A DNA stretch of 11,193 nt from a virus: UHGV virus genome UHGV-1649846; one strand, 5' to 3'. Of this stretch, positions 2,388 to 11,193 are shown piece after piece. The first letter of the stretch is position 1, and each line of letters starts with the position of its first letter. The position numbers and the translations under genes were made by a program. The notes under the pieces are model-generated. The model saw only the letters and a program-made list of their open reading frames with translations, made no database searches and was not told the DNA's origin.

Positions 2388-2918
2388 GGCTGGTTTATTG
2401 TATGCCAAATGATTATTAAAAAGGTTGTGTTAATAACAAAATCCGAAATAATATGCCTGCATATTTTTATCTTGCTTATATTCTGCATATTGTGCATAGC
2501 AGGCTCATCCCTGCAATCAAAACTGTATGATGAGTATTTTTTGTTTTCCTTTTTTCCAGTCATCTGATGATGACCTGCTTCTTTTTAATCCGGATCGACA
2601 TCAGTTTTTTAAGATAATTCCTGCGAGTTATATGCATAAATGCCACAAACTCCGCATTTTATGTGGTTGGGAGTTGCCGGGCGCGCAGTGAGTTTGCTAA
2701 GAAAACTCCTGCATGGTGAATCCCCCTGTGCGGTGGGGTGATACCATTAACCTTTTCTGTCGCCGACAGGTATCACGAACATTTTGTTCACCGGGAGGCA
2801 CCCGGCACCATGTACTTCAATAGATTCTCTCCACATTATGGATATTCTTTCAGAATATCCCACGCAGACTTTGTGTAAATGTTAACAAATGTGCGTTTTA
2901 TTTGATCTGATTCGCTGT

Positions 2919-2948
2919 TTGAGCGTCCAAAACAACGGTATATATAAT
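2919..2948 (+). promoter_or_regulatory. Sigma70-like promoter for the lipoprotein cassette
   Basis: -35 TTGAGC (2919-2924), 17-18 bp spacer, -10 ATATAA/TATAAT (2942-2948); about 30 bp upstream of the RBS GAGGAAAA and the ATG at 2978. Confidence 0.45.
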
Positions 2949-2977
2949 CCTTTACTATATGACATATGTGAGGAAAA

Positions 2978-3406
2978 ATGGGTTTTCGTAGCGCATCAAT
3001 TCTTACGTTGATTATTAGTGGGATTATTATCGGGTGCACTGATGCTGTATCGACAAATTATCATGACCGTACATCATATTACTCCGATAAAGCAATAGAG
3101 ACACAGTATGTGAGTTCATCTGAACGTACTTCTGATGTTAGTGAGGATATCCGTCTGTATGCCCATCAAATCAAGAGCGCCATCGAAAAACAGTTCGGGG
3201 ATGCGAGTAAGTATTCAGGAAAAGAGTGTACACTGAGAATGCATATGGCCCCGAATGGCCTTCTACTGGAGGTTAAAAGAGAAAGTGGAGACCTCGATTT
3301 ATGTCGTGAAGCGATGAATGCGATAAAGAATGCTGATATACCTGCCCCCCCTTCGCCGGAAGTATATAAAGTATTTCAAAATGGGGTGCTGGATTTTAAA
3401 CCCTGA
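2978..3406 (+). CDS. Lipoprotein with a TolA C-terminal domain (domain III)-like fold
   Basis: 142 aa. Signal peptide with lipobox IIGC (Cys20), then a ~50-residue Ser/Thr/Asp-rich linker, then ~85 residues that align closely with my recollection of the E. coli TolA C-terminus, including both conserved Cys and the terminal VLDFKP. RBS GAGGAAAA precedes the ATG. Confidence 0.8.
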   Translation: MGFRSASILTLIISGIIIGCTDAVSTNYHDRTSYYSDKAIETQYVSSSERTSDVSEDIRLYAHQIKSAIEKQFGDASKYSGKECTLRMHMAPNGLLLEVKRESGDLDLCREAMNAIKNADIPAPPSPEVYKVFQNGVLDFKP

Positions 3407-3469
3407 TATTTATTGTTTTGTAATAAACGGTTTCGGCTTAGGTTTGTTCTGACACAGCTACGGCACTGA

Positions 3470-3481
3470 GCTAAATTTAGC
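3470..3481. repeat. Perfect 12-bp palindrome GCTAAATTTAGC between the two lipoprotein genes
   Basis: Read directly. A second short palindrome GCTCTGAGC lies at 3491-3499. Confidence 0.5.
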
Positions 3482-3556
3482 GGATAGTCAGCTCTGAGCC
3501 AGTGGCGGACGTAACAACTACTATTGCTGAGATTTTAATGGATTGAGGAGCAAGAA

Positions 3557-3952
3557 GTGGGATTAAAGAAAATCGTTATGTTGACTTTTTGGGTCGGTTT
3601 TGTTGCGGGATGCACACCTTTACACCCTTCAGATTGCCACAAAACTACTGCTACAGGTAGTTGCAGTTCAGGACGCTGGGATGATCAGGATGAATGGGGG
3701 GCGCAAGCGCGGGGAATCAGAGCTGCAATTAATGCCAAACTTGATGAGCCGCATAACTGGAAAGGGAAAAAATGCAGGTTGCATATGGAATTCTCTCAGG
3801 ATGGCACGGCGTTAAAAATATCTACCAGTAACGGTGATAAAGCCTATTGCGAAGCGATAAAGTCCGCAGCTCATAAAGCCAAATTTCCGGCCTTCAACAA
3901 TCCGGAAGTCTACAGAGATTTTCAGAAATCTGGCTTTGACATGCGAGGTTAG
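3557..3952 (+). CDS. Second, more divergent TolA-domain-III-like lipoprotein (tandem paralogue)
   Basis: 131 aa from a GTG start 6 nt after a strong SD (GAGGAG 3545-3550). Lipobox VAGC (Cys19). C-terminal ~80 residues keep the TolA-III pattern GK.C.L...DG...G...C.A...A...P....VY..F with both Cys conserved. Confidence 0.7.
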   Translation: MGLKKIVMLTFWVGFVAGCTPLHPSDCHKTTATGSCSSGRWDDQDEWGAQARGIRAAINAKLDEPHNWKGKKCRLHMEFSQDGTALKISTSNGDKAYCEAIKSAAHKAKFPAFNNPEVYRDFQKSGFDMRG

Positions 3953-4077
3953 CTCTTCAATTACTATATCTCATTCATAGCAAACTGACAGATTTGATGA
4001 TGTTCTATATACGAAACCTGTGATGTCAAGTCTGAGCTAATACAAATAAACATAATATCAGAGAAATACATTTTATT

Positions 4078-4101
4078 AGCTCGCTACGGCGAGCTTTTTA
4101 T
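4078..4101 (+). terminator. Intrinsic terminator closing the lipoprotein cassette
   Basis: Stem AGCTCGC (4078-4084), loop TACG, stem GCGAGCT (4089-4095), then TTTTTA. Confidence 0.6.
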
Positions 4102-4203
4102 ATTGCATCGTCTCCAGCATATATATCAATTAAGGCTCTGATTGATGTGTCTGAAAGCCTACACATAATAACTATGCCATCCGTTCCGTGCGGAGGTGAG
4201 GCT

Positions 4204-4419
4204 ATGAAATCCATGGACAAAATTTCAACAGGCATTGCCTACGGCACCTCCGCAGGCAGTGCTGGCTACTGGTTTTTACAGTTGCTCGATAGAGTAACTC
4301 CGTCACAGTGGGCTGCAATCGGTGTGCTGGGTAGTCTGGTATTTGGCCTGCTGACGTACCTGACAAACCTTTATTTCAAGATTAAAGAAGATAAGCGCAA
4401 GGCTGCGAGAGGTGAATAA
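4204..4419 (+). CDS. Class II holin, phage 21 S-type pinholin with dual-start motif
   Basis: Begins [26 protein letters not shown]..., nearly the S21 sequence as I recall it. Met1 and Met4 give the antiholin/holin dual start. SD GGAGGTGAGG at 4191-4200. The track's longer ORF from 4147 lacks an RBS. Stop overlaps the endolysin start (TAATG). Confidence 0.85.
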
Positions 4420-4916
4420 TGCCTCCATCATTACGAAAAGTCGTTGCTGCTGCTATTGGTGGCGGAGCAATTGCTATAGCATCAGTGCTAATCACTGGCC
4501 CAAGTGGTAACGATGGTCTGGAAGGTGTCAGCTACATACCATACAAAGATATTGTTGGTGTATGGACTGTATGTCACGGGCATACAGGAAAAGACATCAT
4601 GCTCGGTAAAACGTATACCAAAGCAGAATGCAAAGCCCTCCTGAATAAAGACCTTGCCACGGTCGCCAGACAAATTAACCCGTACATCAAAGTCGATATA
4701 CCGGAAACAATGCGCGGCGCTCTTTACTCATTCGTTTACAACGTGGGTGCTGGCAATTTCAGAACATCGACGCTTCTTCGCAAAATAAACCAGGGCGATA
4801 TCAAAGGCGCATGTGATCAGCTACGTCGCTGGACATATGCTGGCGGTAAGCAATGGAAAGGTCTCATGACTCGTCGTGAGATTGAGCGTGAAATCTGTTT
4901 GTGGGGTCAGCAATGA
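4419..4916 (+). CDS. SAR endolysin (phage 21 R-type lysozyme)
   Basis: 165 aa. Gly/Ala-rich weakly hydrophobic N-terminal signal-arrest-release segment ([20 protein letters not shown]), then a lysozyme-like domain. Sits immediately after the holin and overlaps the Rz start (ATGA). Confidence 0.85.
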
Positions 4917-5377
4917 ACAGAGTAACCGCGATTATCTCCGCTCTGGTTATCTGCATCATCGTCTGCCTGTCATGGGCTGTTAATCATTACCGTGATAACG
5001 CCATTACCTACAAAGCCCAGCGCGACAAAAATGCCAGAGAACTGAAGCTGGCGAACGCGGCAATTACTGACATGCAGATGCGTCAGCGTGATGTTGCTGC
5101 GCTCGATGCAAAATACACGAAGGAGTTAGCTGATGCGAAAGCTGAAAATGATGCTCTGCGTGATGATGTTGCCGCTGGTCGTCGGCGGTTGCACATCAAA
5201 GCAGTCTGTCAGTCAGTGCGTGGAGCCACCACCGCCTCCGGCGTGGATAATGCAGCCTCCCCCCGACTGGCAGACACCGCTGAACGGGATTATTTCACCC
5301 TCCGGGAACGACTGGTAATGATGCAGGCCCAACTTGAAGGTGCTCAGCAATACATAACCGAGCAGTGTTTAAAGTAA
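4913..5377 (+). CDS. Rz-like i-spanin
   Basis: ATG at 4913 overlaps the endolysin stop. N-terminal transmembrane segment ([14 protein letters not shown]), then a coiled-coil-like charged region. Contains the Rz1 gene in the +1 frame. The track's GTG start at 4901 is rejected. Confidence 0.8.
5133..5318 (+). CDS. Rz1-like o-spanin, embedded in Rz in the +1 frame
   Basis: 61 aa. Signal peptide plus lipobox (LVVGGC), proline-rich mature part (PPPPPAW..PPPDW). SD AGGAG at 5121-5125, 7 nt before the ATG. Confidence 0.8.
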
Positions 5378-5514
5378 AATCTTAACTACAATATGATTCA
5401 TTTTGATGATTGTTTCATAAGGAACAGTGAAGTAAGATCTAAGAGGAGTTAAATTTTATACAGTATAATCATAATATTGCAGCAAGGTGGTTATAATTGA
5501 AAGAATATTTAGAT

Positions 5515-6972
5515 ATGAATACATCTCATGTAAGAGTTGTTACTCATATGTGTGGGTTCCTAGTTTGGCTCTATAGTCTTTCAATGTTGCCACCAATGGT
5601 TGTAGCATTGTTTTATAAAGAAAAAAGCCTGTTCGTTTTCTTTATAACTTTCGTTATATTTTTTTGCATTGGTGGCGGAGCGTGGTATACAACTAAGAAA
5701 TCTGGCATTCAATTACGTACCCGTGATGGGTTTATTATAATTGTAATGTTTTGGATTTTGTTTTCTGTTATTAGTGCATTCCCTTTATGGATTGACTCAG
5801 AACTTAATTTAACGTTCATTGATGCTCTGTTTGAAGGGGTTTCTGGAATAACAACAACAGGAGCAACTGTAATTGATGATGTTAGTTCATTACCTCGGGC
5901 ATATTTGTACTATCGGTCACAGTTAAATTTTATAGGTGGTTTAGGAGTTATTGTTCTAGCGGTTGCTGTATTGCCATTATTGGGTATTGGTGGTGCAAAG
6001 CTTTATCAGTCAGAAATGCCGGGGCCATTTAAGGATGACAAACTCACTCCCCGCCTGGCCGATACGTCACGGACACTGTGGATAACTTATTCTTTATTAG
6101 GTATTGCTTGTATTGTCTGTTATAGACTTGCAGGAATGCCTTTGTTTGATGCTATTTGTCACGGGATTTCCACAGTTTCGCTTGGTGGTTTCTCAACTCA
6201 TAGCGAGAGTATCGGATATTTTAATAACTATTTGGTTGAGCTGGTGGCTGGTTCTTTTTCCCTGCTATCGGCTTTCAACTTCACTCTTTGGTATATTGTT
6301 ATTAGCAGGAAAACGATAAAACCTTTAATCAGAGATATTGAACTTCGTTTCTTTCTGTTAATAGCCTTAGGGGTGATCATTGTTACCTCTTTCCAGGTCT
6401 GGCATATAGGTATGTATGACTTGCATGGAAGTTTTATTCATTCGTTTTTTCTTGCCAGCTCCATGCTCACTGATAATGGTTTAGCTACGCAGGATTATGC
6501 AAGTTGGCCCACGCACACGATAGTGTTTTTGCTGTTGTCAAGTTTCTTTGGGGGATGTATAGGTTCAACTTGTGGTGGAATTAAGTCACTTCGATTTCTT
6601 ATACTTTTCAAACAAAGCAAACACGAGATAAATCAGCTTTCTCATCCCAGAGCGTTGTTGAGTGTAAATGTAGGAGGGAAGATAGTTACAGATCGTGTAA
6701 TGAGGTCTGTATGGAGTTTCTTTTTTCTTTATACTCTCTTCACGGTGTTTTTTATACTGGTGTTAAATGGTATGGGATATGATTTTCTTACATCATTTGC
6801 AACAGTGGCTGCATGTATTAATAATATGGGATTAGGTTTTGGGGCTACTGCATCGTCATTCGGAGTGCTTAATGACATTGCAAAATGCTTAATGTGCATA
6901 GCTATGATTCTTGGTCGCCTTGAAATTTATCCTGTTATTATATTGTTTTCAGGTTTTTTTTGGCGCTCCTAA
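5515..6972 (+). CDS. trkG: TrkH/TrkG-family potassium uptake membrane protein
   Basis: 485 aa from the ATG at 5515 (MNTSHVRVV...), multi-pass membrane protein of the Trk K+ transporter family, matching my recollection of E. coli TrkG. Visibly AT-rich. An upstream in-frame TTG at 5497 preceded by SD AAGGTGG (5485-5490) would add 6 residues. Confidence 0.9.
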   Translation: MNTSHVRVVTHMCGFLVWLYSLSMLPPMVVALFYKEKSLFVFFITFVIFFCIGGGAWYTTKKSGIQLRTRDGFIIIVMFWILFSVISAFPLWIDSELNLTFIDALFEGVSGITTTGATVIDDVSSLPRAYLYYRSQLNFIGGLGVIVLAVAVLPLLGIGGAKLYQSEMPGPFKDDKLTPRLADTSRTLWITYSLLGIACIVCYRLAGMPLFDAICHGISTVSLGGFSTHSESIGYFNNYLVELVAGSFSLLSAFNFTLWYIVISRKTIKPLIRDIELRFFLLIALGVIIVTSFQVWHIGMYDLHGSFIHSFFLASSMLTDNGLATQDYASWPTHTIVFLLLSSFFGGCIGSTCGGIKSLRFLILFKQSKHEINQLSHPRALLSVNVGGKIVTDRVMRSVWSFFFLYTLFTVFFILVLNGMGYDFLTSFATVAACINNMGLGFGATASSFGVLNDIAKCLMCIAMILGRLEIYPVIILFSGFFWRS

Positions 6973-7058
6973 TATATGGCTGATTTATAATTGTGAGTTT
7001 AATATTATGTTGACTCACTCATTGATCCAATACCTAACTTTACCAGCAACACCTCCGT

Positions 7059-7090
7059 CCCCAGTAGCACTGGCTGCTGGGGTGCGTTTT
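7059..7090 (+). terminator. Possible terminator after trkG
   Basis: Stem CCCCAG (7059-7064), 12-nt loop, stem CTGGGG (7077-7082), then TGCGTTTT. The T-tract is offset, so weak. Confidence 0.35.
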
Positions 7091-7109
7091 ATTCATAAAG
7101 CAAGGCTGT

Positions 7110-8435
7110 ATGAGCGAGAAATTAAAGATAGTCTATCGCCCATTACAAGAATTGTCACCGTATGCGCACAACGCCAGGACGCACAGTACTGAGCAGGTGG
7201 CACAACTGGTAGAAAGTATTAAGCAATTCGGCTGGACTAATCCGGTGCTGATTGACGAAAAGGGCGAAATTATTGCGGGTCACGGTCGTGTTATGGCGGC
7301 TGAAATGCTCAAAATGGATTCTGTTCCGGTCATTGTTCTGTCTGGCCTGACGGATGAGCAGAAAAAGGCGTACCGCCTGGCAGATAATCGCCTGCCGATG
7401 AATGCTGGCTGGGATGAAGATCTGTTGCGGATGGAGCTGTCGGACCTAATCAATGCTGATTTTGATGTCTCCCTGACAGGCTTCATCCCGACAGAAATTG
7501 ATGAACTGTTGACGGATGTTTTGCCCGGTACCGGACGTTGCGTCGTGCTGGCTATACCGGGAAAATTTTTATCGTTGTTGATGATGAAGATAAGACACGG
7601 CATCAGTACATGGCTGAATTTGGTGAACAGGTGCTGGTGTTTTCCAAAGCCGATATCGCCAGTCGTTTTGACGAAGCCGATAATTTCTGTGACCGCCGCT
7701 CAATTTTTTACGCCCGTAATGCCTGTTTCGACCTGGCAAAACTGGTCGGGTGTAAATACTTCATTCAGCTCGATGATGATTATCACGAGTTCCAGTTTCG
7801 GGTGGATCGCAACTATGACCAGGCCTATTTTCCGATAAGGAAACTGGATGCGATCCTTTCTGAAATGCTGGCGTACTACGAATCAATACCTGCTCTTTCC
7901 ATCGCTATGTCGCAGGGCGGGGATTTTCTTGGTGACAATGGCGGCCATGCTTCGTGGGTGAAACGCAAGGCAATGAACAGCTTTATCTGTTCGGTTGATC
8001 GACCGTTCTCATTCATGGGGCGCATTAACGAGGATGTGAATACGTACACGAATCTCGGTCGCTGTGGTGAATTGTTTATGACGATCGGTGCTGTCCAGTT
8101 AGGGCAGAAACAGACGCAGAAAAACAGCGGCGGAATGACCGAGCTGTATCTGGATTCCGGAATCAGCGAAGGAACTGGGTATTGATGTTCGCGATATTTC
8201 CCCGGCTGAGCGGGCCAGCATGGATGGCGTGGTGGCCGGAGATACAACCTACAGGGAATGGTTTTTGCGTCAGCCTTACACCAGACAAAAACAGATTGTG
8301 GGGGAAACCCGAGCAAAGCTGATTCGGGATGGTGGTATGTCGCCAGATGAATTTTACACCGATAAAGGCGAATGGCTGACGCTGAAGCAGCTCCGTGAGC
8401 GTGATGCACAGGTATTCAGAAAAGCAGGGATTTAA
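7110..8435 (+). pseudogene. ParB/sulfiredoxin-like N-terminal domain gene, apparently disrupted by two frameshifts
   Basis: Frame 0 from the ATG at 7110 gives ~140 aa of plausible ParB-like sequence (..IIAGHGRVMAA..) and then degenerates. A second frame is open from 7505 to 8185 (DxD-containing segment) and the first frame reopens from 8139 to 8435. Three collinear overlapping segments with one terminator at the end suggest a single decayed gene of roughly 440 codons. Confidence 0.5.
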
Positions 8436-8454
8436 ATAAATCATTTATTACAAC

Positions 8455-8482
8455 AGGCTACCTTCGGGTGGCCTTTTTTATT
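8455..8482 (+). terminator. Strong intrinsic terminator (UUCG tetraloop)
   Basis: Stem AGGCTACC (8455-8462), loop TTCG, stem GGTGGCCT (8467-8474, one G-U pair), then TTTTTTATT. Confidence 0.7.
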
Positions 8483-8539
8483 GCTGCGATCCGGATGGTG
8501 AGCAGCGTAACTGTCGGAAGAATTAAACCAGGTACTAAT

Positions 8540-9304
8540 ATGAAACTGAAAACGGTCGAGATTAACGGAAAACAATACGCAGAAATTGATACTGCTGGCC
8601 TGCCAGTTTATGTGCACGACGATGGTAAAGAAATTGGCTTCGATGCACCGCTGGCGACAAAAAAAATTACAGAGCTTAATGGCGAGGCAAAAAATCATCG
8701 CCTGGCTAAAGAAGCTGCAGAGGAAAAACTGGCTAAGTTTGCCGCTATCGAAGACCCGAAGAAGGCGATCGAGGCACTGGAAATGCTGTCAAAAATCGAC
8801 CAGAAAAAGCTGCTCGATACGGGACAGGTTGACCAGGTTAAGGCAGAAATTACGAAAAATTTTCAGCAGCAATTAGATGAAGAAAAGCAACGCTCTCAGA
8901 TGCTGGAGAAGCAGCTTTACGATTCTATGATTGGCGGTAGTTTTGCGGGTTCAAAATATATTGCCGATAAAATTGCGATCCCGGCAGATTTATTACAAGC
9001 CCGCTTCGGGCAGGCATTCAAAGTGGAAGAAGGGAGGATCGTTGCTTATGACGCTTCCGGCAACAAAATTTATTCCCGCGCGAAGCCTGGCGAACTGGCG
9101 CAGTTTGATGAGGCGCTGGAGTTCCTTGTCGAAAATTACCCTCAGAAAGACTACATCCTGAAAGCCAGTGGCAACAATGGCGGCGGCTCCCGTCCGACAC
9201 AGCATGATATTGGTCAGAAAACGATGAAACGCTCTGCTTTTGATGCACTGGATGTTGCAGGTAAGCAAAACGCATTGAAAGACGGTATCACAATCGTTGA
9301 TTAA
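8540..9304 (+). CDS. Hypothetical phage protein, K/E-rich with predicted coiled-coil; possibly scaffolding or head-assembly-like
   Basis: 254 aa from the ATG at 8540 (MKLKTVEINGK...), preceded by AGGT. The track's earlier start at 8468 lies inside the terminator hairpin. Central segment rich in K/E/Q/A heptad-like sequence. No confident family assignment. Confidence 0.45.
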   Translation: MKLKTVEINGKQYAEIDTAGLPVYVHDDGKEIGFDAPLATKKITELNGEAKNHRLAKEAAEEKLAKFAAIEDPKKAIEALEMLSKIDQKKLLDTGQVDQVKAEITKNFQQQLDEEKQRSQMLEKQLYDSMIGGSFAGSKYIADKIAIPADLLQARFGQAFKVEEGRIVAYDASGNKIYSRAKPGELAQFDEALEFLVENYPQKDYILKASGNNGGGSRPTQHDIGQKTMKRSAFDALDVAGKQNALKDGITIVD

Positions 9305-9350
9305 CACATTTGTCAGCTTCCGGATGGGAGCTGGTGTCAGGGCTGGATAG

Positions 9351-11193
9351 CTCATTACTCCATCTAAGGGACGCTTCCTGAACAACATTAACGCGGTCAG
9401 TAAAACAGACTTTGCTGATAAGCGTGGTATGCGTTATGTGCGGGTTAACGCTCCTGCAGGTGCAACATCTGGAAAATATTACCCTGTTGTTGTTATGCGT
9501 TCTGCTGGCTCAGTAAGCGAACTGGCATCAAGGGTCATTATCACCACGGCAACGCGAACCGCAGGCGATCCGATGAATAACTGCGAGTTTAACGGATTTG
9601 TTATGCCTGGTGGCTGGACTGACAGGGGGCGTTATGCTTATGGAATGTTCTGGCAATATCAAAACAATGAACGAGCCATCCACTCAATAATGATGAGTAA
9701 TAAGGGCGATGATTTGCGCTCTGTGTTCTATGTTGATGGCGCTGCTTTCCCTGTTTTTGCGTTTATCGAAGATGGCCTGTCAATATCCGCACCTGGTGCT
9801 GATCTCGTTGTTAATGATACGACCTATAAGTTTGGGGCAACAAATCCGGCGACTGAATGTATCGCGGCGGACGTTATCCTTGATTTTAAGAGTGGGCGTG
9901 GTTTTTATGAGTCTCATTCGTTAATCGTTAACGATAACTTGTCGTGCAAAAAACTTTTTGCCACAGACGAAATTGTAGCGCGTGGTGGTAATCAGATTCG
10001 AATGATAGGTGGGGAGTATGGGGCATTATGGCGTAATGATGGCGCTAAAACTTACCTGCTGCTTACCAATCAAGGTGATGTTTATGGTGGCTGGAATACA
10101 TTAAGACCGTTTGCTATTGATAACGCAACCGGCGAACTGGTTATTGGAACCAAACTGTCCGCAAGTCTGAACGGTAATGCATTAACAGCAACAAAGCTGC
10201 AAACGCCAAGACTGGTTTCTGGTGTTGAGTTTGATGGTTCCAAAGATATTACTTTAACCGCCGCGCATGTGGCTGCTTTTGCCAGAAGGGCAACGGATAC
10301 ATATGCCGATGCGGATGGTGGCGTTCCCTGGAATGCCGAATCAGGCGCTTACAATGTCACCCGCTCTGGCGACAGCTATATTCTGGTTAACTTCTATACC
10401 GGAGTCGGAAGTTGCCGGACCCTGCAGATGAAGGCGCATTACAGAAATGGTGGTCTGTTCTACCGTTCTTCAAGAGATGGCTATGGTTTTGAGGAAGACT
10501 GGGCAGAAGTTTATACCTCGAAAAATCTTCCACCAGAAAGCTACCCAGTCGGCGCACCAATCCCGTGGCCATCAGATACCGTTCCGTCTGGTTATGCCCT
10601 GATGCAGGGGCAGACTTTTGACAAATCTGCCTACCCGAAACTTGCTGCCGCTTATCCGTCAGGCGTGATCCCTGATTTGCGTGGCTGGACGATTAAGGGC
10701 AAGCCCGCCAGTGGTCGTGCCGTATTGTCTCAGGAACAGGATGGCATTAAATCGCATACCCACAGCGCCAGCGCATCCAGTACGGATTTGGGGACGAAAA
10801 CCACATCGTCGTTTGATTACGGCACTAAATCCACGAATAACACTGGTGCGCATACCCATAGTTTAAGTGGCAGCACGAATGCAGCTGGTAATCACAGCCA
10901 TAGAGATGGCCGTCGATTTAACCCCAGTGTTTTTAAAGATACTTATCAATATGGTTATACAAGCTCAGGTCAAAATACCTGGGGTGTACAAGGCTCAGTA
11001 GGTATGTCTACGGGGTGGTTAGCGAATACCAGTACAGATGGTAATCATAGCCATTCACTGTCCGGCACAGCAGCATCTGCAGGTGCACACGCGCATACTG
11101 TCGGTATTGGTGCTCATACGCACTCCGTTGCGATTGGTTCACATGGACACACCATCACCGTTAACGCTGCTGGTAACGCGGAAAACACCGTCA
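9351..11193 (+). CDS. stf: Side tail fibre protein, 5'-incomplete and running off the right edge of the window
   Basis: Frame 0 is open from the stop at 9348-9350 to the window end, with no RBS-supported start (first ATG at 9429). The last ~210 residues match the lambda Stf C-terminal region as I recall it ([58 protein letters not shown].. with GAHTHS/GNHSHS repeats ..[15 protein letters not shown]). It is absent from the ORF track because no stop codon falls inside the window. Confidence 0.85.

Follow-up and report, generated by a model that had tools for sequence, protein, structure and literature searches.

We found that the gene at positions 8540..9304 (+) of the DNA analysed here, a stretch of 11,193 nucleotides that we call the window, is most likely an intact, partnerless procapsid scaffolding gene of a Rac-type lambdoid siphophage prophage that has been stripped by deletion. 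We put the probability of this reading at about 0.8. The initial annotation had left the choice between a scaffolding or assembly gene that outlived a deleted structural module and an unrelated cargo gene. The first of these is supported by the gene order in intact relatives and by three deletions that we mapped in the window. The second is rejected in view of a fixed place in the head modules of phages of many hosts, of the lack of a predicted promoter and of a frequency in complete E. coli genomes that is about that of the capsid gene.

The reading frame runs unbroken from the ATG at 8540 through the TAA at 9304 and encodes 254 amino acids, with K at 11.8%, A at 11.8%, E at 8.3% and D at 7.9%, no Cys, no Trp and a pI of 5.6. 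MKLK at the N-terminus varies hardly at all among 36 aligned homologues, and ATG 8540 was therefore taken as the start. A longer frame of 278 amino acids from GTG 8468, which is used in some records, was rejected, as the extension overlaps a terminator and is not conserved. With its unbroken frame and its conserved start, the K/E-rich ORF described in the initial annotation is a real and intact gene, and its coordinates were given correctly.

An intrinsic-terminator-like hairpin with a run of T, AGGCTACC-TTCG-GGTGGCCT, lies at 8455..8480 (+), between a remnant of a MuF-type gene and the scaffolding gene. The hairpin itself (8455-8474) has 8 pairs and a TTCG loop and is followed by TTTTTT. This stretch is also present in the intact relatives, and a terminator is annotated at the equivalent site in HK639 and in the Mannheimia phage 1152AP2. 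Together with the tail-fibre remnant, which begins at 9366, the hairpin confirms the surroundings described earlier, a terminator upstream and a tail-fibre fragment downstream of the gene. We found no sigma-70-like promoter between the terminator and ATG 8540, and the sole Shine-Dalgarno-like element for the gene is a weak AGG, located about 9-11 nt upstream. Hence, of the start and signals of its own with which the gene had been credited, the start codon holds, the promoter does not, and the AGG is the one further signal that was seen.

The position downstream of a terminator in a heavily deleted prophage, along with the weak Shine-Dalgarno-like element, may raise the question of whether the ORF is a chance or decaying frame that yields no protein product. 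We regard this as extremely improbable. The dN/dS against the diverged copies of intact phages is about 0.08, which marks a real gene under purifying selection, and the GC content of the three codon positions (59%, 33% and 47%) is typical of coding DNA. Moreover, the frame is intact and exactly the same protein is also encoded in intact prophages. A word-indexed search returned 2342 DUF6651-type proteins at E <= 1e-5, and an exhaustive profile search 2045 cluster representatives at 50% identity; the homologues are mostly about 245-290 amino acids long among the 150 matches listed.

It had been suggested that the protein has no recognisable family, which is wrong. The protein matches Pfam PF20356 (DUF6651) with 203.9 bits (E 8.8e-61), well above the curated gathering cut-off of 27 bits, where residues 116-226 align to profile positions 3-113 of 113, and all 36 aligned relatives match DUF6651 likewise. 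Residues 1-253 align to positions 1-249 of 250 of PHROG 784, a full-length match (E 1.4e-125) to a family that carries a label of unknown function. Secondary to PHROG 784 is a match to PHROG 206, 'head scaffolding protein' (E 3.1e-22, residues 37-235 against positions 38-238 of 263). The RefSeq name of the window protein is 'DUF6651 domain-containing protein' (WP_000770042.1), and an NCBIfam search gave nothing meaningful. No match to a protease family was found for the protein in Pfam, NCBIfam or PHROGs. A fusion of prohead protease and scaffold, of the HK97 or lambda C-Nu3 type (S49, S77, S78, U9/U35), was rejected on this result and on the intact relatives, where the genes from portal to capsid include none annotated as a protease.

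Our literature search found no paper that mentions DUF6651, nothing on scaffolding in HK639 or on the scaffold or capsid of the Rac prophage with trkG, and no experimental, proteomic or genetic data on any member of DUF6651 or PHROG 784. The papers that mention the phage Me-ZS1 hold only a BLAST-based annotation of a 'scaffold protein' in another phage, AXL3.

The synteny in complete relatives, which the initial annotation had proposed as a check, places the homologue between the MuF and the capsid genes. In the intact Rac-type order, the genes for the small and the large terminase subunit, the portal protein (DUF4055) and the MuF protein are followed by the DUF6651 gene and a capsid gene of the P22 family, and beyond the capsid gene by those for the connectors, the tail tube, YdaY and the tape measure protein. 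We examined 13 phage records for the position of the homologue. In 11 of them the capsid gene follows it immediately, namely in HK639 (E. coli), Me-ZS1 (Microcystis), Ftm (Acinetobacter), SSU5 (Salmonella), DMCA (Caulobacter), Ssp-JY42 (Synechococcus), PS-1 and D14H (both Pseudomonas), 1152AP2 (Mannheimia), CGphi29 (Salicola) and Mcat6 (Moraxella). The remaining two are Rhizobium phages, where a few small ORFs lie between the homologue and the downstream capsid gene. The upstream ORF of Mcat6 that is annotated as 'coat protein' is the MuF gene, and the true, Gp13-like capsid gene of this phage lies downstream. Upstream of the capsid gene is where the homologue was found in every examined relative that has enough downstream sequence, the intact E. 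coli prophages among them. In the IMG/VR contigs with close relatives, a MuF homologue precedes the scaffold homologue in 77 of 80 cases and a capsid-gene homologue comes next on the same strand in every case, at a median gap of 97 nt. The place directly upstream of the capsid gene is the canonical one for a scaffolding gene, as in SPP1 and P22.

A place adjoining the capsid gene would suit a decoration protein too, and the homologue is labelled 'minor structural protein GP20' in the Me-ZS1 record. The same name is carried by one match among the predicted viral structures of BFVD; with E limited to about 0.4, the other named matches there are called 'Scaffolding protein'. However, it seems improbable that the protein stays in the mature head, as decoration, cement or minor capsid proteins do, instead of acting as a transient scaffold. 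Decoration genes usually come after the capsid gene, whereas the gene studied here comes before it in every phage record and in 80/80 of the IMG/VR loci. No other scaffold candidate was found in these head modules, and in the relatives examined the stretch from portal to capsid gene has no annotated prohead protease. PHROG 206 carries a head scaffolding label, and the old GP20 family is now listed in Pfam as Phage_scaffold ('Phage capsid assembly scaffolding protein'). The label in the Me-ZS1 record would not fit a protein that leaves the capsid, but appears to be derived from this old family name.

The predicted fold also argues for a scaffold. An AlphaFold2 model was built on an alignment of 33 sequences, with three rows from phage records left out, and reached a mean pLDDT of 74.5; the arrangement of the domains is undefined in this model, because the pTM is only 0.37, a value to be expected for domains that are not fixed relative to one another. 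The overall shape is predicted to be elongated and helical, with a flexible linker and a small C-terminal helix-turn-helix. Such a shape, which the structure prediction proposed in the initial annotation thus brought out, is typical of scaffolds and speaks against a mature-head component. Conservation and the model delimit an N-terminal beta-hairpin region at residues 1-33 (MKLK...PVYVHDDGKE; 8540..8638 (+)), with strands predicted at residues 5-8, 11-14, 22-25 and 31-33 at a pLDDT of about 80. Three long helices, rich in K, E and A, follow within residues 36-136 (8645..8947 (+)), at 36-65, 73-93 and 96-136, which agrees with the coiled-coil-like central region noticed at the outset. The DUF6651 match (8885..9217 (+)) includes a small alpha/beta domain at residues 139-205, which is the core of DUF6651 and the best-predicted part of the protein (pLDDT 81-88 over residues 131-200). 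Residues ~206-226 (9155..9217 (+)) form a Gly-rich linker (SGNNGGGS...) that is predicted to be disordered, with a pLDDT below 50 at residues 211-216 and 220-224, and its sequence differs among the homologues. The protein ends in a tail, residues 227-254 (KTMKRSAFDALDVAGKQNALKDGITIVD; 9218..9301 (+)), which may be a coat-binding module. It is predicted as a mini helix-turn-helix, a compact strand-helix-helix-strand unit at residues 228-254 with helices at 231-235 and 239-247 (pLDDT 78-86). When the PDB was searched with either the protein or the profile, only chance-level matches came up, to ribosomal protein uL11 (E 0.015) and to a designed protein (E 6.6), and no similar solved structure was found.

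Using tblastn, we observed that some phage homologues align over their whole length and others only to about residue 207-210. This split led to the prediction that it tracks the family of the capsid protein, which was then borne out. The full-length aligners (Rac, HK639, Me-ZS1, DMCA and CGphi29) are paired with capsids of the Pfam family P22_CoatProtein, the partial aligners (Ftm, PS-1, D14H, Mannheimia 1152AP2 and Mcat6) with Gp13-like capsids, and SSU5 with a third capsid type (SrpI/GP7-like). The capsid of Ssp-JY42 is P22-type by the annotation of the record only, with no Pfam match at E 0.01. In the alignment, the conserved body ends at YPxKDxILK and is followed by the Gly-rich linker and then by the tail. 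The tails with a P22-type partner share the pattern K-T-x-x-R-x-x-F-x-x-L...G-x-x-I-V-D, from enterobacterial to cyanobacterial and alphaproteobacterial phages. Among the phage records and the window, the tail type matches the capsid family in all 14 scaffold homologues compared.

We then made the same comparison for 160 IMG/VR loci with 113 distinct scaffold sequences between them, and the tail type matches the capsid family in 113/113. All 60 distinct homologues with a P22-type capsid gene next to them have the K-T-x-x-R-x-x-F...IVD tail, and all 53 with a Gp13-like capsid gene next to them have unrelated tails. The latter are of two types, KGNFGGxKExRLAAIK... or KxLxDCKTxAEKVAY.... Five loci (L180 and L187-L190) have a body that is 69-77% identical to that of PS-1, which has a Gp13-like partner, and 57-64% identical to that of Rac; nonetheless, they carry a P22-type tail and a P22-type capsid gene. 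The tail thus goes with the type of capsid rather than with the descent of the body. From this pattern, we infer that residues 227-254 may be a module for coat binding and for specificity towards capsids of the P22 family. The link between tail and capsid is one of co-inheritance, and a swap of the tail together with the adjacent capsid gene as one recombination block would give an identical pattern, also in the absence of contact between the two.

Among the known systems, the gp004-type protein of SSU5 is related to the window protein. It matches both PHROG 206 (7e-56) and DUF6651 (5.9e-9) and is encoded directly upstream of the capsid gene, but it differs in its N-terminus, its tail and the family of its capsid. 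The scaffolding label of PHROG 206 rests on annotation and apparently not on experiment. In SPP1 the module is alike, with portal, MuF-type minor head protein (gp7), scaffold and capsid genes, and the scaffold gp11 (PF06810, PHROG 194), with 214 amino acids compared with 254 in the window protein, is helical as well. A subset of the DUF6651 proteins have SPP1 gp13-like capsids as partners, whereas the partner of the window protein is a capsid of the P22 family. The window protein gave no match to Phage_scaffold (PF06810, the SPP1 gp11 family) at E up to 1, and 3 of the 36 relatives match it below the threshold (best 1.7e-6; P0113 is the top one, with 28.5 bits against a cut-off of 35). Aligning the family profile to SPP1 gp11 with hhalign gave a probability of 1.9%.

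The scaffold gp8 of P22 shares more with the window protein in its partner and in its predicted shape. The capsid partner is in both cases a member of Pfam P22_CoatProtein, the annotation of both head modules lacks a protease gene, and both scaffolds have an elongated helical body with a small C-terminal helix-turn-helix, which in the window protein is predicted. In P22 gp8, this helix-turn-helix is described as the essential coat-binding element (bioRxiv 10.1101/2022.12.13.520362; PMC12005531). By contrast, there is no detectable sequence relationship between the two scaffolds (hhalign probability 0.06%), and gp8 lacks both the N-terminal beta region and the DUF6651 alpha/beta domain. The capsid proteins of P22 and of the Rac-type phages are only marginally similar (BLASTP E 0.011), and P22 has no MuF-type gene between the portal and scaffold genes, where Rac-type modules have one. 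On the negative hhalign results, membership of the SPP1 gp11 or the P22 gp8 family, to which the scaffolds studied best belong, was rejected. The window protein probably works like both of them, although it stands outside their families.

The gene content identifies the window as the degraded remains of a lambdoid E. coli prophage of the Rac type. Its Pfam matches include DUF1367, YbcO, a DUF1133/Q-like antiterminator and two genes with a TolA C-terminal domain, further a holin, a lysozyme and Rz, and then TrkG at 5497-6972. A ParB-N (ynaK) gene is fused to a fragment of a TAGT-type glycosyltransferase gene (Pfam ParB_N and TAGT). The landmarks of the cryptic Rac prophage of K-12 are trkG, ynaK, ydaY, stfR, tfaR and pinR, and the backbone that it has in common with the window comprises the DUF1133/Q-like gene, the TolA-like genes, the lysis genes essD/rrrD/Rz, trkG, ynaK and an stfR-type fibre gene. 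The Rac prophage of K-12 is not known to retain a DUF6651 gene. The window is a separate deletion derivative, one that still carries this gene, and the whole structural module is present in intact relatives, for instance in the phage vB_EcoS-666R9 and in the PapM-32-1 prophage, whose P22-family capsid protein (WP_001599781.1) has 379 amino acids.

Using blastn against these two intact relatives, we found three blocks of the window that align to them (4913-7535, 7529-8162 and 8154-9366), with identities of about 99.5-99.8% and of about 99.6% for the last block. The overlaps of adjacent blocks mark two deletion junctions. At the first (7529..7535), which lies inside the ParB/TAGT region and joins the ParB-like ynaK to a TAGT-like gene, about 0.4 kb is gone (positions 2920-3337 of vB_EcoS-666R9). 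At the second (8154..8162), about 5 kb is gone relative to the same phage (its positions 3972-9000), and with it the end of the TAGT glycosyltransferase gene, a small ORF, the genes for both terminases and the portal protein (DUF4055) and most of the MuF gene. What is left of the latter is an ORF at 8220..8435 (+) for the last 71 amino acids of the protein. This ORF aligns with the 3' end of the minor head gene in the intact relatives and matches PHROG 241, 'head morphogenesis' (1.5e-36, profile positions 295-365 of 679).

The third junction lies at 9365/9366, where 'TA' is common to both parent sequences. Of the spacer between the scaffolding and capsid genes, 62 nt are left (9305..9366 (+)), and the capsid gene is wholly absent from the window, including its ATG and ribosome-binding site, as judged by the start that RefSeq annotates in relatives. 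The deletion also took the genes for the head-tail connectors and the tail, along with half of the tail-fibre gene. The remaining 3' part of this stfR-type side tail-fibre gene (9366..11193 (+)) is joined at about codon 511 of 1117; its ORF opens at 9429, runs past the end of the window and matches Gp34_trimer, Collar and gp37_C. Hence, the statement that the gene has no neighbouring morphogenesis genes was nearly right: the capsid gene is indeed gone, but the remnant of the MuF gene is still present. Only 2-3 bases are common to the parent sequences at each junction, which points to illegitimate recombination.

Whether the orphan gene has been kept because it benefits the host or the prophage, either as a decoy scaffold against superinfecting Rac-type phages or through an unrelated cargo function, was also considered. 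At least two prophages that underwent separate deletions, that of the window and that of strain 11PC, still have the gene in intact form, and the breakpoints in 11PC differ from those of the window. The arrangement seen in the window also recurs, as a human gut metagenome contig and an NCBI assembly (GCA_028436425.1) are 100% identical to window positions 2540-11193, and fusions of the scaffold with Lom or tail-fibre sequence are found in the protein collection (P0002 and P0004). However, we consider such a benefit very unlikely. Among 5426 complete E. coli genomes, the DUF6651 gene is present in 758 and the capsid gene in 748 when at least 80% of the gene has to be covered, and some sequence of the capsid gene is present in 791 compared with 762 for the DUF6651 gene. 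Because the numbers of 758 and 748 genomes are so close, preferential retention was rejected, and with it domestication or selective keeping of the orphan gene. The third junction was not found in any complete E. coli genome of the collection searched, and a terminator and no promoter-like site precede the gene. Moreover, the window protein is identical to copies from intact prophages; the deletions must therefore be recent, and the intactness of the gene is uninformative on selection. The prophage of 11PC and the Lom and tail-fibre fusions indicate repeated loss of the structural modules of Rac prophages and not a favouring of the scaffold. The orphan gene is thus most probably a functionless passenger of recent deletions.

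In an intact phage, we propose that the scaffolding gene would be transcribed within the late operon, from a late promoter under antitermination by Q. The scaffold would co-assemble with the major capsid protein, of the P22 family and the HK97 fold, into a procapsid and would exit the shell upon DNA packaging. Its release would probably occur without cleavage, as in P22 and SPP1, because no prohead protease gene is annotated from portal to capsid gene in the relatives examined. The N-terminal beta region, the long helices and the DUF6651 alpha/beta domain may together form a self-associating core, to which the disordered Gly linker would tether the C-terminal helix-turn-helix. This tail would then dock on the capsid protein and set which capsid-protein family is recognised. 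In the window, three deletions, probably by illegitimate recombination, have left the scaffolding gene intact but partnerless.

The locus itself is ordinary, a piece of debris from prophage decay that is explained by alignment to intact relatives. The family reaches further. DUF6651 / PHROG 784 occurs in about 14% of the complete E. coli genomes and also in phages of Acinetobacter, Pseudomonas, Klebsiella, Caulobacter, Rhizobium and cyanobacteria. We lean towards the view that DUF6651, with about 2000 clusters at 50% identity, is a large family of phage scaffolds that has yet to be named as such. Its members would be built from a conserved assembly core, a Gly linker and an exchangeable tail of about 25-40 residues, where the tail alone would set which capsid family is recruited (P22-, SPP1 gp13- or SSU5-type). 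Exchange of the tail would let one core serve HK97-fold capsids that look unrelated, and the orphan of the window would be a member with a P22 tail. A scaffolding reading of DUF6651, with an exchangeable tail for coat recognition, is plausible and has so far been absent from Pfam, from the product names in RefSeq and from the label of PHROG 784, and the family can reasonably be renamed head scaffolding protein. The strict link between tail and capsid makes the recognition of a coat protein by its scaffold open to simple tests. Moreover, a conserved core with swappable tails would be a convenient tool from nature to redirect cargo to capsids of the P22-like or SPP1-like kind.

The putative scaffolding gene survives independent deletions in further Rac derivatives. 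For the derivative in E. coli 11PC (L002 6432-8289), we found that the breakpoints fall at positions 2932 and 8425 of L001, the intact phage vB_EcoS-666R9, with the right-hand junction at window position 9324. Moreover, some assemblies encode a protein in which the scaffold is fused to tail-fibre repeats (P0002, 434 aa), and some encode a fusion of the scaffold to Lom/OMP beta-barrel sequence (P0004, 421 aa).

Just 5' of the scaffolding gene, in the interval that separates it from the minor head gene, lies a rho-independent terminator (window 8455-8480). Such a terminator is also present between these two genes in Rac-type phages, and terminators are annotated in the records of HK639 (L003 4898-4919) and Mannheimia phage 1152AP2 (L023 1430-1462). 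The placement is odd, since the terminator precedes the head proteins that are needed in greatest abundance. Possible explanations are that Q antitermination allows readthrough, or that the structure serves as an mRNA-stabilising or processing hairpin.

The DUF6651 family and its neighbouring genes are wrongly annotated in public records; the genes concerned in vB_EcoS-666R9 are L001 9315-10151 and 10181-11389. The scaffolding gene is labelled 'coat protein' in the public record, with a GTG start placed 72 nt too early, and in Moraxella phage Mcat6 the same label has been given to the MuF protein (L025 456-1430). Among the Acinetobacter phage matches concerned (H63, H69, H71, H73 and H75), the homologue appears as 'telomere regulation protein' in several records and as 'tail length tape measure protein' in one. 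The capsid protein of Synechococcus phage Ssp-JY42 (L020 2408-3541), encoded next to a scaffold homologue, is annotated as a member of the P22 coat family. It had no Pfam match at E <= 0.01; despite this negative result, Ssp-JY42 was placed with the P22-type set by the tail motif, the C-terminal pattern of the scaffold homologues that tracks the capsid-protein family.

Elsewhere in the window, the Rfam sRNA family STnc100 has a match at 2681-2867 (+ strand; 83.4 bits against a gathering score of 47), in the ORF-poor interval that separates the Q-like gene from the first TolA-like gene. Two small genes for TolA C-terminal domains (2978-3406, Pfam TolA 2.4e-23, and 3557-3952, 1.3e-14; both + strand) adjoin each other in the late region of the prophage, 5' of the lysis genes. 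As possible cargo, the pair may interfere with the entry of colicins or phages that depend on TolA.

Further downstream, the ParB-N (ynaK) gene and part of a gene for a TET-associated glycosyltransferase (TAGT) have been fused by a 0.4-kb deletion (window 7110-8185, + strand); the TAGT part matches PHROG 842, 'beta-glucosyl-HMC-alpha-glucosyltransferase'. In intact relatives, a ParB gene and then a gene for a 310-aa TAGT protein stand immediately 5' of the terminase genes, an arrangement that hints at DNA hypermodification in Rac-type phages.
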